From assembly GCA_951406725.2 (NCBI GenBank), contig OX597820.1, forward strand, positions 78,306,001-78,370,000: a stretch of 64,000 bases of DNA. The letters run 5' to 3'. The number at the start of each line of letters is the position of its first letter. Position 1 is the stretch's first letter. The position numbers and the translations under genes are program-made. Under the pieces are notes generated by a model. The model ran no database searches and had not been told where the DNA came from. It saw only the letters and a list, made by a program, of their open reading frames with translations. Source of the DNA: Octopus vulgaris. Lineage: Eukaryota. Shown piece after piece: positions 3,813-56,790 of the stretch.

Positions 3813-5390
<1,578 letters not shown>

Positions 5391-11241: not shown

Positions 11242-12193
11242 ACAATGGGCTATATACCTGTAGCAATTTTGTCATCCATAGTCTGATATGATATTTCGGA
11301 ATAATATTCCTTCTTCAGGTCGCTTCCAAGGTATATTGAAAACCAACGGGTATTCTGGATCCATCGCAATTCAGATTAAGTACCCAAGACGACCAAAGAA
11401 GAGAAGGGCTAGACATACAACTAGCCCCTCCGGCCCCTCTCTGAGAGGACACCTCACAAAGAAACGAACAAGGGACAACATTCAATGTACACTAACAAAC
11501 TGTCCCGTCCGCGACACATATTTGTGTCAACGGGTTAATGTTGTGTATAGAATACAATGTAACAAATGCAAGAAGTTCTATGTGGGTAGCACAACAAGAC
11601 CGTTATACGTCCGCATCAAAGAACATCTGAACACGAGAGCCTCCTCCTTCAGAAAATATCTAGACAGATTCCGAAATACGACAAAAACATAACAGTCACA
11701 ATTGAGGCCAATAGAAGAAATTTGGGTAATTTAAGAATTAAGGAAGCTATACTCATACACACTCTAGGACCCCAAATTAACAACAGGCTAGAGGTTGGTA
11801 ATCAGTATATTATTTAGATACGTCTGGATGTGTGTAGGTTCATTTTTGATAATATTCTGATCTGTAGCTTATAACAAAAAAAACAATAGAAGAGAAGAGA
11901 AAAAAGGAAACTGCACGTATAATACGTAACTTAGGAGCAGCGCTACGGATGTACCAGCACACACGAGATTGAGACATGCTCGACCTCACACACTTCTCAT
12001 GAGGAATTCCGGAAGGAGCATCGTGAGGCCACTGCTGAGACGCTTCCAAAAAAATAAGAAGAAAAAGGAAAAGCCGTTGGAAAACCGATTATAGCAGCGA
12101 TTCCATCTAAGAATATCTGAAGAAGGAATATTATTCTGAAATATCATATCAGACTAAGGATGACTAAATTACAACAGGTATAGAGTCCATTGT
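11242..12193 (+). mobile_element. Penelope-like element, 5'-truncated: inverted terminal fragment, GIY-YIG endonuclease remnant, 3' terminal repeat
   Basis: CPV..C..NVVYRIQCNKCKKFYVGSTTRPLYVRIKEH, then after a frameshift LRIKEAILIHTLGPQINNR (stop 11815-11817). 11242-11318 is the inverted copy of 12117-12193, which carries CTGAAGA..GAAA. Confidence 0.88.
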
Positions 12194-14767: not shown

Positions 14768-15968
14768 GGCTGCCTCCTCGTTATCGAGTATGGCCATTGC
14801 ACGAAGCTTAACTGTTACTAGTGCTGTGATCAAATGTGACTTTTTAGCCCAGCCAAAGATCTACAATGTCTTGTACAGAATTGGCAACTAAAGCCTTTAC
14901 CGGTAATAGCCGGCTGTAGTTGTAACTGGGCTTCATGTGCCTTTGCATGTCGTTTAAGTCCTGCTGCCGAATTACACTCTCTTCCACATGCCTGACAGAT
15001 ATGATTAGTATGGCGTGTAACTCGACCACCAGTGGCCAGGTTGTCACTCATCTGTCTCGCTTTATGACTACGAAGATGACTCTTGAGTTCAGCTTTACTG
15101 AGGCAGAGTCTGGCACAGACACTGCATGTCAGCGTCATAAGAAGACCCTTCCCATCTGGAAATGTAAGAGCGATGCCCTCCCTGACTTCCCTCCTTACTT
15201 ACTCATGTGCAACTCGAGATTTCTCAAAAGTGGCTGTCCCCCTCATGCACAATCCTTCTCCACCTGCTACGATCAATAGCTATGCCTTCCCATGTGTCAG
15301 GAGAGATGCAAGCATCTCTTAAGGAAACTTTCAGCAAGTCCTTACACCTCTTTTTTGGTTTATGTGGAGGTCGTTCTCCTTTAGCTAACTCTCCATAAAA
15401 GAGTTGTTTTGGCATCCTTGAATCCTTCATCCTGACCAGATGATCACTCCATCTGAGCATTTGCTTTAACACAAGAGCTTATATACTTGCACACCGAGAG
15501 CCTTCCATTATTTCAAGATCACTGATGCGGTCCTTCTTCTTAATGCCATAGATCCGTCTGAGACACATCTGATGGAAACGTTCCAGTTGTTTAAGGTGGT
15601 ATCGATATGTGACCCACGTCTCGCAGGCATAGAGAAGAGAAGGGAGCACACATGCCTTGCACGCCTTTATCTTTGTCTTTCTGCATATGTCTCGCCGACT
15701 CCAGAGGCGCTTTTCTAGCCTTCCGAAAGCAACACTTGCTTTCCTAATTCTATAAGGAATTTCATCATCCAAATTGCTATATCTATTAATAGTGCTTCCC
15801 AGGTAGACAAACTGATCAACTGCATCAGGCCGTTTACCATACACATAGATATTTGGTACACTATACTGCTTACCAGGGGCAGGTTGATGCATGACAACAG
15901 TTTTCTTGAGATTGACTGTCAATCCTAAGGCAGTGCAAGCATCAGAGAATGCATTCAAAATGTGTTGC
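14732..15968 (-). mobile_element. RTE-clade LINE, 5'-truncated, frameshifted ORF2 with C-terminal C2H2 fingers and (TAA)n tail
   Basis: GLTVNLKKTVVM..FVYLGS..LLYACETW..LERFHQMCLRRI; LRWSDHLVRMKDSRMPKQLFYGEL; three CxxC..HxxxH motifs. Tail at 14732-14766. Confidence 0.92.
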
Positions 15969-16002
15969 ATACATACATACATTTATTCATACATACATAC
16001 AT

Positions 16003-17390
16003 ATTTCAACTGAATAAATAACATCTGTACCTCAGAACTCTCTGCATTCAATAAAACATTGGACAACAATGTGTTTACAGTGCCAGGACTCATACCAACA
16101 TCTGGTCTGCTTGATTGGACGCTTGATGAGATCCGAGCTGTTGATGTGAAAACCCAGAAAATACTAACAAGCACGCATAACTTCCACATAAACAGTGACG
16201 TAGACCGCATCTACCTAAAACGAAAGCAAGGCGGTAGAGGCTTAACATCGATCCAAAATGCCTTTGAATGTCGTATCAGATCGCTTCGACAACATCTTTT
16301 AACCACCAAGTGTTGAAGTGCATCCCTTGACCACGTTAGCTGATAACATTATAAGACTTAGATGAAAGGATGAGCCTCTATGAGCAGAAGACTATGCATG
16401 TATATGCTAATAGAAAGCTCCGAGATGATAGTAATATTAATCATCAAAGCAGTCTATCGTGACCAATAACCGAATCACTACCTCCCACTTTGAAGGGTAT
16501 GCGTTTGCAATACAGGAACAGGAAATGTCAACAAAGTACCTCATGCACAAAAGGGATAGAGATGCGGCAAAAGTAGCAAAATATGGAAATCAATGAAGAC
16601 TTTGTTAAATTAACAGCGAAGATATCGCATACACCATAAGCAGTTGTCCGAAAATGTCATAACGGTATTATCTATCGATGAGACATGGTGTTGTAACTGG
16701 GACACTCTATAATGAAATCCGTCTGAAGGATAACCCCGAGGACAATGAAATAAGAACCCGCAGTATGGTAGAAGCTATGGCCACTCATAATACAAAAGAG
16801 TACTGTTGGAATGACCCAGAGGAAACTTCAATAAAATGTAAGCATAACAGATCTGATGTAATGATTTGGGATCGAGAAGAGAAACTTTGTATAGTTGCCG
16901 AAATTAGCTGCTCAACGGATGTTAACATAAAGCTGAATGTTAGTGAAAAAGAGAATACCTATGCTGAACTATTGAGAAATCTACAGTTGCAATATCCAGA
17001 TTACAAGTTCAGGTTTATACCTGTAATTATTGGGGGACTGGGATATGCAACAGACTGCATAAACACCAATCTTGAGAAATTAGGCTTCTCAAAACTAGAG
17101 AGGAGAAAGCTGATTCGAAGACTACAGTTCCAATCCATCACTAGAACTGTAAAAACTGTAAAACTTTCCAGACGTTTATCATTTAAATATATATGAGTAT
17201 GTCTAGATATGCAGCTATATGCATGAGAATATATACATAAAACAAACAAATCTGCACATGCAAATATACATACAAGCAAAAATACCCAACTGTTGATATT
17301 GAAATTACAATGAAGGGGCCTTGGATCTAGGTTAGAAACCGGTTCTTACTCTATTGGCAAGAAATATTGAAATGAACTGAATAATGACAT
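16003..17390 (+). mobile_element. R4/Dong-clade non-LTR retrotransposon 3' portion (RT thumb, CCHC relic, restriction-like endonuclease), degenerate
   Basis: DVKTQKILT..NFHINSDVDRIYLKRKQGGRGL; FAIQEQE; HNRSDVMIWDREEKLCIVAEISC..EK..Y (PD-(D/E)xK-like). (CATA)n on both sides. Confidence 0.85.
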
Positions 17391-26752: not shown

Positions 26753-26775
26753 ATTATGTTATATATACATACATA

Positions 26776-26833
<58 letters not shown>

Positions 26834-27442
26834 AATCAAGGAACGGCCATAATAGGCCATTCACCCACTAGAAATAACAGCCAAAAGCTTTAACCGCAAA
26901 ATAACATCAATTCCGTAAACCAGGAGAAAATTAAAAAACATTTACCCTGTAATTTCTTAGACGATGCACCGTTTAATCTACCGTTTAATGGTAAACTAAC
27001 CTGATTAAATTAAATCAAGCCAATCTACCATAGGCCCTTAGATTCATTAGTAAGAAATAGCCAAGTCGGAACAGATATTTTTCACGAGGCACTCCCCTTG
27101 CTACCTCGGCAATATCTGACCTAAAATTTTCAAATCGTCGCACTCGCGCCAAATTTATCGGCAGCAAATAAATATAAGCCGCCGATTCCATTACGGAATT
27201 AACCAGAAAATTCATAATTAATCAATATAGGGTGGCAAAAAAAATTTTGTAGAATTCATTTGCCACCAGCGGCCTAGTGGGAAAAAATTAAATAGTCATA
27301 AACCATTTTTAAGTTCAACATCACAATCAAGGAACGGCCATAATAGGCCATTCACCCACTAGAAATAACAGCCAAAAGCTTTAACCGCAAAATAACATCA
27401 ATTCCGTAAACCAGGAGAAAATTAAAAAACATTTACCCTGTA

Positions 27443-27549
27443 ATTTCTTAGACGATGCACCGTTTCATCTACCGTTTAATGGTAAACTAACCTGATTAAA
27501 TTAAATCAAGCCAATCTACCATAGGCCCTTAGATTCATCAGTAAGAAAT
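27443..27549 (-). ncRNA. Type I hammerhead ribozyme, intact core (array copy 2)
   Basis: Reverse complement of the motif at 31091-31197; CTGATGA, GAAAC and GTC all intact. Confidence 0.85.
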
Positions 27550-28913
27550 AGCCAAGTCGGAACAGATATTTTTCACGAGGCATTCCCCTTGCTACCTCGG
27601 CAATATCTGACCTAAAATTTTCAAATCGTCGCACTCGCGCCAAATTTATCGGCAGCAAATAAATATAAGCCGCCGATTCCATTACGGAATTAACCAGAAA
27701 ATTCATAATTAATCAATATAGGGTGGCAAAAAAATTTTGTAGAATTCTTTTGCCACCAGCGGCCTAGTGGGAAAAATTAAATAGTCATAAACCATTTTTA
27801 AGTTCAACATCACAATCAAGGAACGGCCATAATAGGCCATTCACCCACTAGAAATAACAGCCAAAAGCTTTAACCGCAAAATAACATCAATTCCGTAAAC
27901 CAGGAGAAAATTAAAAAACATTTACCCTGTAATTTCTTAGACGATGCACCGTTTAATCTACCGTTTAATGGTAAACTAACCTGATTAAATTAAATCAAGC
28001 CAATCTACCATAGGCCCTTAGATTCATCAGTAAGAAATAGCCAAGTCGGAACAGATATTTTTCACGAGGCATTCCCCTTGCTACCTCGGCAATATCTGAC
28101 CTAAAATTTTCAAATCGTCGCACTCGCGCCAAATTTATCGGCAGCAAATAAATATAAGCCGCCGATTCCATTACGGAATTAACCAGAAAATTCATAATTA
28201 ATCAATATAGGGTGGCAAAAAAAATTTTATAGAATTCTTTTGCCACCAGCGGCCTAGTGGGAAAAAATTAAATAGTCATAAACCATTTTTAAGTTCAACA
28301 TCACAATCAAGGAACGGCCATAATAGGCCATTCACCCACTAGAAATAACAGCCAAAAGCTTTAACCGCAAAATAACATCAATTCCGTAAACCAGGAGAAA
28401 ATTAAAAAACATTTACCCTGTAATTTCTTAGACGATGCACCGTTTAATCTACCGTTTAATGGTAAACTAACCTGATTAAATTAAATCAAGCCAATCTACC
28501 ATAGGCCCTTAGATTCATCAGTAAGAAATAGCCAAGTCGGAACAGATATTTTTCACGAGGCATGCCCCTTGCTACCTCGGCAATATCTGACCTAAAATTT
28601 TCAAATCGTCGCACTCGCGCCAAATTTATCGGCAGCAAATAAATATAAGCCGCCGATTCCATTACGGAATTAACCAGAAAATTCATAATTAATCAATATA
28701 GGGTGGCAAAAAAAATTTTGTAGAATTCTTTTGCCACCAGCGGCCTAGTGGGAAAAAATTAAATAGTCATAAACCATTTTTAAGTTCAACATCACAATCA
28801 AGGAACGGCCATAATAGGCCATTCACCCACTAGAAATAACAGCCAAAAGCTTTAACCGCAAAATAACATCAATTCCGTAAACCAGGAGAAAATTAAAAAA
28901 CATTTACCCTGTA

Positions 28914-29020
28914 ATTTCTTAGACGATGCACCGTTTCATCTACCGTTTAATGGTAAACTAACCTGATTAAATTAAATCAAGCCAATCTACCATAGGCCCT
29001 TAGATTCATCAGTAAGAAAT
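28914..29020 (-). ncRNA. Type I hammerhead ribozyme, intact core (array copy 5)
   Basis: Same motif as copy 2; C at 28937 preserves G12. Confidence 0.85.
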
Positions 29021-30386
29021 AGCCAAGTCGGAACAGATATTTTTCACGAGGCATTCCCCTTGCTACCTCGGCAATATCTGACCTAAAATTTTCAAATCGT
29101 CGCACTCGCGCCAAATTTATCGGCAGCAAATAAATATAAGCCGCCGATTCCATTACGGAATTAACCAGAAAATTCATAATTAATCAATATAGGGTGGCAA
29201 AAAAATTTTATAGAATTCTTTTGCCACCAGCGGCCTAGTGGGAAAAAATTAAATAGTCATAAACCATTTTTAAGTTCAACATCACAATCAAGGAACGGCC
29301 ATAATAGGCCATTCACCCACTAGAAATAACAGCCAAAAGCTTTAACCGCAAAATAACATCAATTCCGTAAACCAGGAGAAAATTAAAAAACATTTACCCT
29401 GTAATTTCTTAGACGATGCACCGTTTAATCTACCGTTTAATGGTAAACTAACCTGATTAAATTAAATCAAGCCAATCTACCATAGGCCCTTAGATTCATC
29501 AGTAAGAAATAGCCAAGTCGGAACAGATATTTTTCACGAGGCATGCCCCTTGCTACCTCGGCAATATCTGACCTAAAATTTTCAAATCGTCGCACTCGCG
29601 CCAAATTTATCGGCAGCAAATAAATATAAGCCGCCGATTCCATTACGGAATTAACCAGAAAATTCATAATTAATCAATATAGGGTGGCAAAAAAAATTTT
29701 GTAGAATTCTTTTGCCACCAGCGGCCTAGTGGGAAAAAATTAAATAGTCATAAACCATTTTTAAGTTCAACATCACAATCAAGGAACGGCCATAATAGGC
29801 CATTCACCCACTAGAAATAACAGCCAAAAGCTTTAACCGCAAAATAACATCAATTCCGTAAACCAGGAGAAAATTAAAAAACATTTACCCTGTAATTTCT
29901 TAGACGATGCACCGTTTAATCTACCGTTTAATGGTAAACTAACCTGATTAAATTAAATCAAGCCAATCTACCATAGGCCCTTAGATTCATCAGTAAGAAA
30001 TAGCCAAGTCGGAACAGATATTTTTCACGAGGCATGCCCCTTGCTACCTCGGCAATATCTGACCTAAAATTTTCAAATCGTCGCACTCGCGCCAAATTTA
30101 TCGGCAGCAAATAAATATAAGCCGCCGATTCCATTACGGAATTAACCAGAAAATTCATAATTAATCAATATAGGGTGGCAAAAAAAAATTTTGTAGAATT
30201 CTTTTGCCACCAGCGGCCTAGTGGGAAAAAATTAAATAGTCATAAACCATTTTTAAGTTCAACATCACAATCAAGGAACGGCCATAATAGGCCATTCACC
30301 CACTAGAAATAACAGCCAAAAGCTTTAACCGCAAAATAACATCAATTCCGTAAACCAGGAGAAAATTAAAAAACATTTACCCTGTA

Positions 30387-30493
30387 ATTTCTTAGACGAT
30401 GCACCGTTTCATCTACCGTTTAATGGTAAACTAACCTGATTAAATTAAATCAAGCCAATCTACCATAGGCCCTTAGATTCATCAGTAAGAAAT
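30387..30493 (-). ncRNA. Type I hammerhead ribozyme, intact core (array copy 8)
   Basis: Same motif as copy 2; C at 30410 preserves G12. Confidence 0.85.
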
Positions 30494-30703
30494 AGCCAAG
30501 TCGGAACAGATATTTTTCACGAGGCATTCCCCTTGCTACCTCGGCAATATCTGACCTAAAATTTTCAAATCGTCGCACTCGCGCCAAATTTATCGGCAGC
30601 AAATGAATATAAGCCGCCGATTCCATTACGGAATTAACCAGAAAATTCATAATTAATCAATATAGGGTGGCAAAAAAAAATTTTGTAGAATTCTTTTGCC
30701 ACC

Positions 30704-31427
30704 AAATTACAGGGTAAATGTTTTTTAATTTTCTCCTGGTTTACGGAATTGATGTTATTTTGCGGTTAAAGCTTTTGGCTGTTATTTCTAGTGGGTGAAT
30801 GGCCTATTATGGCCGTTCCTTGATTGTGATGTTGAACTTAAAAATGGTTTATGACTATTTAATTTTTTCCCACTAGGCCGCTGGTGGCAAAAGAATTCTA
30901 CAAAATTTTTTTGGCACCCTATATTGATTAATTATGAATTTTCTGGTTAATTCCGTAATGGAATCGGCGGCTTATATTTATTTGCTGCCGATAAATTTGG
31001 CGCGAGTGCGACGATTTGAAAATTTTAGGTCAGATATTGCCGAGGTAGCAAGGGGAATGCCTCGTGAAAAATATCTGTTCCGACTTGGCTATTTCTTACT
31101 GATGAATCTAAGGGCCTATGGTAGATTGGCTTGATTTAATTTAATCAGGTTAGTTTACCATTAAACGGTAGATGAAACGGTGCATCGTCTAAGAAATTAC
31201 AGGGTAAATGTTTTTTAATTTTCTCCTGGTTTACGGAATTGATGTTATTTTGCGGTTAAAGCTTTTGGCTGTTATTTCTAGTGGGTGAATGGCCTATTAT
31301 GGCCGTTCCTTGATTGTGATGTTGAACTTAAAAATGGTTTATGACTATTTAATTTTTTCCCACTAGGCCGCTGGTGGCAAAAGAATTCTACAAAATTTTT
31401 TTTTGCCACCCTATATTGATTAATTAT
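30704..31427 (+). repeat. Inverted block of the same unit (about 1.47 copies), ending in (TA)n
   Basis: Near-exact reverse complement of the array unit. The 66-aa ORF flips strand here (30934-31134 +). Confidence 0.97.
31091..31197 (+). ncRNA. Type I hammerhead ribozyme, intact core, extended stem II
   Basis: Stem I ATTTCTTA/TAAGAAAT; CTGATGA 31099-31105; stem II ATCTA/TAGAT; GAAAC 31174-31178; self-complementary stem III ACGGTGCATCGT; GTC triplet with cleavage predicted after C31189. Confidence 0.88.
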
Positions 31428-31496
31428 ATATATATATATATATCCTGTTGTACCCGTCCACCAGAACTTTCTCTCACTCTTTCTTCCTGTTTCTGC

Positions 31497-55659: not shown

Positions 55660-56790
55660 TAGATTCTTAATTTTTCATATATAATATATAATTATCGTTG
55701 AATCATTATTTTACAGCTTTGATAATGAGTGGTGATAAAAATTGCAGTTGGAGCCCTTTTTACGCTACCTATAGAAAAAAGACTGAATGCACGGACAGCG
55801 GTAAAACAAATTAATGCTGTGAAGACCCCGGAGCTGTCAACCTATGTGTACTACAAAACTCGTTCAGACGTCTCAAGGAAGGAGACATTTTAGGGAAACT
55901 TTTTATCGTAGAAGATGAGGTCTTGCTGGAAATGTTTGAACAAAAACCAAACACAAGCAATCCTGCATTGTCTGCAGAACTTGGTCCTTTACAAATCACT
56001 ATCAATCTCGACACTTCCATAAATTCGGCCATATAAGCAGATGTTATTGAGAATCTCCTCACCATCTTACCAATGACCAGGCTCAATGATGAGTGAATAT
56101 TTGAAAAAAACCGCTGTCGAATCCTCGAGATATCCGTTTCATGCGTCGAAGTGCAAGGGGGGAATGAAAAATGGATTTAGCTTCGCAATTCTAATAACAG
56201 AAATTAGTGGATTTGTTGCAGCCATGCTACAGGGCCTATTGTCAAAGAAGAGTGATTTGAACAGGTCATGTTGTGTGTTCGCTGGAACTTCGTGGGGCTA
56301 TTATACTTTGAGCTTGTCCTAGATAATCATTCTGGGAACTCTAACACTTATGCTCAACAACTGCAGCGAGTATATGAGGTTTCGAAAACACACCACTCGG
56401 CATTGGTCAATCGAAGAAGCTCACTCCTAAGGTATAATAAAGCCCCTAAACACACTGCCAATGAAACCAAGCGCAGACTTGAAGAACTCGGGGAGCTGGA
56501 AGTGTTCCCTCGCCCTGCCAACAGTTCAGACCTTGCACCATCAGATTATCACATTTTTGAAGCCATGGATCATTTCCAGCATGGACAGAGTTTCAACAAT
56601 GTGGATGAATTTAAGAACGGATGCAGGAAGGTTTTTTTTTTTACCTCTAAACTGGTCAAATAGTATAAGTGTGCGATTAAGCTTCTGCATAACGATGGCA
56701 ACAGACTATAGAATATGGTGGAATATATTTCAATTAATAAACGATTTTCGTATGTAATATGTTTGAACTATTAATGAAAGCTGGAAATAC
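55660..56790 (+). mobile_element. mariner transposon relic (transposase pseudogene)
   Basis: MLCVRWNFVGLLYFELV..NSNTYAQQLQRV..PKHTA..ELGELEVFPRPANSSDLAPSDYHIF, a decayed LHDNARPH / YSPDLAPSDYHLF region. Boundaries approximate. Confidence 0.85.

Follow-up and report, generated by a model that had tools for sequence, protein, structure and literature searches.

Insertion junctions of a hammerhead-bearing tandem repeat in Octopus vulgaris pile up just past the predicted ribozyme cleavage site

Metazoan non-LTR retrozymes are described, in the available text of the published accounts, as non-coding tandem units with less than 50% GC and one type I hammerhead ribozyme per unit (PMC7229834; bioRxiv 10.64898/2026.07.22.740005), with units dispersed through the genome. 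The repeat reported here from Octopus vulgaris is like them in these respects (no LTR, PBS or PPT being expected), and its general fit to retrozymes is also drawn from the accessible part of a review (PMC7761336). It differs in its unit of 491 nt, slightly above the 170-400 nt or ~150-450 nt quoted in the available text of PMC7229834, in its 68-nt stem II domain, and in insertions that place two arms head to head, their 3' ends fixed, within (TA)n; the repeat is known from DNA, and its circular form is putative. The available text of PMC7229834 uses neither "inverted" nor "microsatellite", and that of the preprint (10.64898/2026.07.22.740005) uses neither "breakpoint" nor "tail".

These insertion features are instead those of Penelope-like elements (PLEs), for which the accessible part of PMC8557442 reports partial tandems, a 5'-truncated copy in inverted orientation, a tail on one side and a bias toward (TA)n. 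In the anole PLE, PAc, two reverse transcriptase (RT) start sites bound the tail and both strands were extended in vitro, according to the available text of PMC11167929. The octopus repeat likewise shows partial tandems, an inverted truncated copy, a tail at one end, a (TA)n target and two fixed 3' ends, but it carries no ORF and its tail is ~106 nt rather than 30-40 nt. Furthermore, its 5' ends pile up past the hammerhead site, whereas for PAc the same text reports that no RNA-seq reads end at the site and that cleavage is dispensable in vitro. A link between ribozyme and junction is known from R2, where cleavage sites shape the genomic 5' junctions (PMC3774820, available part) and where insertions from RNA with a ribozyme 5' module are often slightly truncated, mostly ≤50 nt from the end (PMC11331408, available part). 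The octopus junctions would be similar in reflecting a cleavage position; however, R2 is an autonomous LINE with an HDV-like fold at one 5' site, whereas here a hammerhead is present in every tandem unit and is read through in ~80% of first passes. In L1 twin priming, two primers on one RNA produce an inverted 5' block. The octopus insertions resemble that outcome, but their putative priming sites are fixed and internal, they lack a poly(A) tail, and the overlap between arms spans whole units.

The window, the whole 64,000-nt stretch of O. vulgaris DNA that was analyzed, contains one such element, made of two head-to-head arms of one 491-nt tandem repeat set inside (TA)n (Table 1). Unit positions are counted from the base after GTC (+1 = window position 31190). 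The 3' ends of arms A and B, at unit positions 131 and 237, would correspond to the first and second RT start sites, respectively. Arm A has its 5' end at unit position 183, where hairpin 183-221 has its 5' foot. These coordinates bear out the preliminary description of the locus, which had placed the end of the array at a strong hairpin, the start of the inverted block 4 nt after the predicted cut, and the GTC^TAAG motif within the unit. Because the A at 30704 is common to both arms, exactly TAAG (+1 to +4) is absent from the junction. The element contains no ORF of ≥130 aa. Head-to-head joints like that of the window, from other loci, are present in short-read contigs; the junction at 30704 is spanned by none of the 32 short-read contig pieces among the matches listed (14005 more exist).

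Table 1. Features of the element in the window (positions as window coordinates; strand "." where none applies).
Feature	Position	Strand	Detail or basis
(TA)n target microsatellite, left flank	26760..26828	.	
Arm A, 7.9 tandem units	26829..30704	-	3' end = unit 131, 5' end = unit 183
Eight hammerhead copies in arm A	26952..30493	-	C17 at 26960, 27451, 27940, 28431, 28922, 29412, 29903, 30395
Hairpin, unit 183-221, at arm A 5' end	30666..30704	-	fold -17.3 kcal/mol
Head-to-head junction, 1-nt overlap	30704..30704	.	arm B begins at unit +5
Arm B (inverted block)	30704..31427	+	unit 5-491, then 1-237; one full hammerhead
Predicted type I hammerhead	31091..31197	+	sequence, core conservation, pair counts
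Hammerhead stem I	31091-31098/31190-31197	+	sequence
Hammerhead core CUGAUGA	31099-31105	+	sequence
Hammerhead extended stem II, 68-nt domain	31106-31173	+	sequence
Hammerhead core GAAA	31174-31177	+	sequence
Hammerhead stem III, near-palindromic	31177-31188	+	sequence
Predicted hammerhead cut	after C31189	+	GTC^TAAG at 31187-31193
Tail (~106 nt, unit 132-237) between the two fixed 3' ends	31321..31427	+	3'-end tally
(TA)n target microsatellite, right flank	31428..31443	.	

The sequence of the predicted ribozyme presents the type I features: the core elements CUGANGA, GAAA and UH, with three stems and stem I open. Invariance of the catalytic core is ≥98% over 121-129 loci, with variation at N7 (U, C or G), H17 (C or A), 10.1 and 11.1, labeled by standard hammerhead numbering. 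In the pair counts, 97.2% of cells are paired. Changes on both sides occur in 3 of 36 stem pairs among 17 variants (9 of 500 shuffles; 28 of 500 for the covariation score), two of the three coming from one divergent array, and the covariation support for the stems is accordingly weak. Unit positions 424/459 were ruled out as a compensatory pair, being unpaired in 9 of the 17 variants. Rfam returned no match at the gathering score and no hammerhead family at E values up to 10, probably because of the long stem II. Free folding of the unit preferred other pairings and did not return the hammerhead; the constrained fold costs 1.9-4.4 kcal/mol above the minimum, with a stem III pairing probability of ≤0.02 in the monomer. 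This modeled instability of stem III would fit the dimer-dependent hammerhead type described in the accessible part of PMC4209133. A sister array, L098:1-5258, diverges by ~7%: its stems I and II have G-C in place of A-U, and its stem III is perfectly palindromic. It is a lead to further subfamilies for covariation.

Five of the eight arm A hammerheads carry G12U and are predicted to be inactive; the eight copies read G T T G T T G T at this base, and further private variants form a mosaic. The G12U variant has six matches in the genome, five of them in arm A of the window; arm B lacks it. A reading of the G12U units as the mark of a trimer circle was dropped: the variant is private to the array, arm B does not have it, and the period is interrupted by other variants. 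The mosaic likely reflects post-insertion exchange or an assembly mosaic.

The repeat belongs to a large family. A DNA search of the genome yielded 1207 candidates, 40 of which were scored; the hammerhead pattern matches at 1770 places and the exact 3'-end pattern at 422, giving a family of at least 422 copies. Among 162 loci picked by their 3' end, 143 comprise head-to-head A and B arms and 18 are solo. In all blocks examined, the 3' ends before (TA)n cluster at unit 131 (176 ends) and unit 230-238 (141 ends), and the two-armed loci have their fixed 3' ends at ~131 and ~232-237. The two arms of one element differ at only 23 of 2167 diagnostic sites (97 elements), compared with 36% for random pairs, and the units of one array hardly vary (0-4 differences in 34 of 35 arrays, against ~16 between loci). 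Private variants fixed in all units, a sign of rolling-circle copying, were found in only 8 of 23 arrays, and 90 of 308 arms are longer than one unit. The arm joints show overlaps of ≥2 nt in 60 of 136 cases and insertions in 40, and both arms end within 15 nt of one position in 44 of 144 pairs (9.1 expected). In four cases (L123, L137, L177 and L199), the junctions contain inserts or duplications from repeated short copies of +8..+30, as though the enzyme had engaged anew more than once where a template ended. The unit is covered by contigs from three sequencing runs, guessed to be RNA, in which ends, strand and circularity are not visible. Taken as a whole, the repeat is best described as a variant of the non-LTR retrozymes that bears the insertion signature of PLEs.

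The same genome harbors a very young autonomous PLE family that encodes an RT plus a GIY-YIG domain, with many intact 775-aa frames (L115:1820-4144 in G000:C2, and L233-L262) and 150 scored matches at 99-100%. Its copies have a tandem period of ~4270 and insert in the same head-to-head layout, with two fixed 3' ends in (TA)n that bound a 32-nt tail. It would be of the Neptune or Nematis type, judging from its CxxC linker and the characterization of these types in the available part of PMC8557442. The ~700 nt after its ORF contain no CUGANGA and show no significant likeness to the 491-nt unit (best E 1.2); because the part seen shares no significant sequence with the repeat, this family is a candidate partner only. 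An older PLE-type GIY-YIG endonuclease fragment lies in the window itself (11282-11692, + strand; Pfam PF01541, E 9e-6). Its family has 8573 genome candidates, of which 150 were scored, at 58-86% apart from the fragment itself. An older family examined as a possible partner likewise showed no significant likeness to the 491-nt unit. Open frames resembling fragments of LINE reverse transcriptases and a mariner-like transposase, as judged by eye, also lie in the window, at 3888-4703 (-), 15479-15982 (-), 16663-17196 (+) and 56256-56663 (+).

The positions of 5' ends along the unit were compared in two samples of the family. The discovery set comprised the first 100 of the 422 pattern matches, corresponding to 99 loci and 188 arms, 179 of them scored. 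The replication set comprised 64 matches outside the discovery set, obtained with a pattern that also fixed one flank base; after one was dropped for an assembly gap, 63 loci and 120 arms were retained, with 114 scored. Arms of ≤30 nt (15 in total) were left unscored, and 44 loci with broken alignments or very short arms were curated by hand. To call ends, each arm was extended against a profile that tolerated common variants, and for every position the expectation was computed from the arms still at risk there. Template jumps inside an arm (one of them at +1 in L143) did not count as ends, and a cut-off neighboring array in L098 was excluded. The first 40 loci, many with ends near the cut, were rejected for statistics because their query, starting at unit position 6, selects such ends; 12 of them were kept, since the 3'-end patterns also picked them.

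In the discovery set, 34 of 179 5' ends fall in +1..+30, compared with 13.0 expected (ratio 3.04); for arm A alone in these 99 loci, the scan-corrected p is 0.0095. The replication set yields 21 of 114 against 8.4 expected (ratio 2.57, p 0.0006), and the pooled count is 55 of 293 against 21.4 (distance-adjusted rate ratio 2.86). Because the arms are coupled, pooled two-arm p values overstate independence; the arm A figures, with one arm per element, are free of that problem and give 35 of 160 against 13.1 expected. The 30 nt upstream of the cut hold 15 ends (19.2 expected), with no excess, and the next 30 nt downstream, past +30, hold 26 (24.2 expected). Ten of 19 head-to-head joints among the short-read contig matches listed also start in +1..+30; these are the best-supported joints only and stand outside the counts. 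The breakpoints are thus not uniform along the unit: +1..+30 is enriched in both samples and the excess is one-sided. A uniform distribution is what the preliminary description had named as refuting a role of cleavage. The peak within a few nucleotides of GUC that it had named as support was, however, not found. Despite an abundance of microhomology partners, positions +1..+6 hold 1 of 293 ends (3.9 expected); the pile-up begins at +7/+8, has its mode at +8 (7 ends) and spreads to +29. The best 11-nt window, +7..+17, contains 31 ends against 8.1 expected; the best elsewhere in the unit contains 10 against 3.9.

The pile-up could in principle be a product of the local sequence, with U-runs, TTAC/GTAA inverted microhomology at +8/+15 and a weak +11..+39 hairpin favoring joining while the ribozyme has no role. 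Three elements do join +8 to +15 via a 4-nt overlap, and the weak hairpin starts at +11, within the pile-up. However, when microhomology, AT content and pairing are taken into account the excess persists (ratio 3.2, 145 loci), the equally AT-rich region 130-170 is depleted (ratio 0.44), and the 5' feet of other hairpins are at a ratio of 1.0. Subfamilies S2, S3, S4 and S5 have the same majority sequence at +1..+40, yet differ widely in their share of first-pass ends there, and later passes lack the excess. Already largely refuted on these grounds, a purely local cause is highly improbable.

The dependence on pass is strong. Stops in +1..+30 account for 46 of 223 first passes and 9 of 133 later passes (p 0.0004), the latter being no significant excess, and the flanking windows show no difference between first and later passes. 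About two thirds of the first-pass ends in +1..+30 are excess. These figures also bear on an internal promoter from which transcripts would start at dispersed positions from ~+7 to +28, with the proximity of the hammerhead incidental. A broad, 20-nt spread that begins away from the cut would suit such a promoter, differences between subfamilies could reflect their source loci, and promoters are considered to reside in the pLTRs of PLEs (PMC11167929, available part). Nevertheless, one promoter per unit should raise the later passes too, and metazoan retrozymes seem to lack promoters, according to the accessible text of a review (PMC7761336). There is also no extra G before the ends (4 of 56, compared with 37 of 256 elsewhere), a weak argument, which presumes that a PLE RT copies the cap. 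Transcript starts are therefore an improbable source of the pile-up, if less so than local sequence.

A more serious competitor is stalling of the RT at a folded, uncleaved hammerhead, that is, at stem I, possibly dimerized or protein-bound, on circular or multimeric RNA. The +7/+8 edge and the mode match the end of the stem I 3' strand (+1..+8), the deficit at +1..+6 agrees with a block there, and a rolling-circle template would likewise be expected to confine the effect to the first lap, later laps being free because the cDNA has already unfolded the RNA. Stalling does occur in this family, because three other hairpins show about a twofold excess at their 3' feet (10 observed against 4.0 expected, 9 against 4.7, and 10 against 5.7). 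Yet stem I, at just -4.5 kcal/mol, is weak and coincides with the largest peak, whereas the 19-bp hairpin shows no excess, with 4 ends against 7.1 expected at the foot of the strongest hairpin (-22.1 kcal/mol), and the pairing index has no effect in the regression. Moreover, the five subfamilies do not differ in the majority sequence of stem I, and the predicted probability of this stem (~0.27-0.79) does not track their excess. Stalling is thus an unlikely cause, though the least unlikely of these alternatives.

The subfamilies themselves differ markedly. First-pass ends in +1..+30 number 19 of 60, 5 of 71, 3 of 26, 2 of 20 and 11 of 25, a range of 7% to 44% (locus-level p 0.004, 145 loci), so that stops after the hammerhead vary sixfold between subfamilies that share the local sequence. 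No link was found between hammerhead genotype (G10.1; GUC versus GUA) and the subfamily excess. The junctions that recur (8/15, 307/155) fall in different subfamilies, and a single copied master junction was rejected on that ground. Both arms end in +1..+30 in 17 of 144 pairs, arm A only in 12 and arm B only in 3; such paired ends are not specific to the site, because joints at mirror positions are common everywhere in the unit. Partner run-through was seen in 2 of 25 cases compared with 9 of 31 (p 0.09).

Any explanation has to accommodate what is directly observed: the layout, the pair of fixed 3' ends, the haplotype shared by both arms, the one-sided +7..+30 excess and its concentration on the first pass. 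The element is probably a non-coding hammerhead repeat copied by a PLE-like RT from one RNA, with the family-wide pile-up marking self-cleaved ends. A PLE protein would nick both (TA)n strands, cDNA synthesis would begin at unit positions 131 and 237 on one RNA, and the two cDNAs would be united by end joining. On a hammerhead-cut linear RNA, both cDNAs would terminate near +1, with 6-30 nt lost either because the end paired in stem I is copied incompletely or because the cDNAs are trimmed when joined. With circular or uncleaved multimeric RNA, the cDNAs would extend over several units and could stop at nearly any position, producing the long arms; cleaved linear RNAs would thus serve as templates alongside circles or multimers. 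Judged from genomic sequence, the +7..+30 boundary most likely, although not certainly, records cleavage in vivo across the family. The complete scheme is put forward more tentatively, at slightly less than an even chance: insertion junctions would form a genome-wide record of in vivo self-cleavage, with a PLE dimer priming one RNA at sites 106 nt apart, cut linear RNAs ending copies past the cut, and circles giving multi-unit rolling-circle arms.

For the junction in the window, the position is different. The preliminary description had read this junction as a footprint of hammerhead self-cleavage while allowing that a single case could be chance. As an account of the family, the footprint is the likeliest reading; for this one junction, it is not demonstrable. 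A flat model places either 5' end of an element in +1..+10 with a probability of 0.04, and a chance of that size per element makes one junction weak evidence. The junction lies at +5 on a second pass, outside the family pattern of first-pass ends at +7..+30. The unit in the window carries markers that we read as those of subfamily S4, in which the first-pass rate is low (2 of 20). In its favor, the junction lies close to the site, and one of its two closest relatives among the 40 scored of 1207 candidates, L032, also starts arm B at +5. On balance, production of the +5 junction by cleavage is somewhat doubtful.

No earlier breakpoint analysis of hammerhead repeats was found in the literature searched, which consisted of main texts, mostly from outside subscription journals. 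The family joins the full PLE insertion signature with a retrozyme-like repeat, in hundreds of young copies with two mapped priming sites, and its 5'-end boundary at the hammerhead is replicated. That boundary contrasts with the sole in vitro PLE study, in whose available text cleavage is reported as dispensable (PMC11167929), and the questions that the family raises are testable with one 491-nt RNA. If the complete scheme is true, linear templates end near the cut and circles give multi-unit arms, so that the linear:circular ratio among templates in each subfamily would be readable from genomic junctions, that is, from DNA alone.
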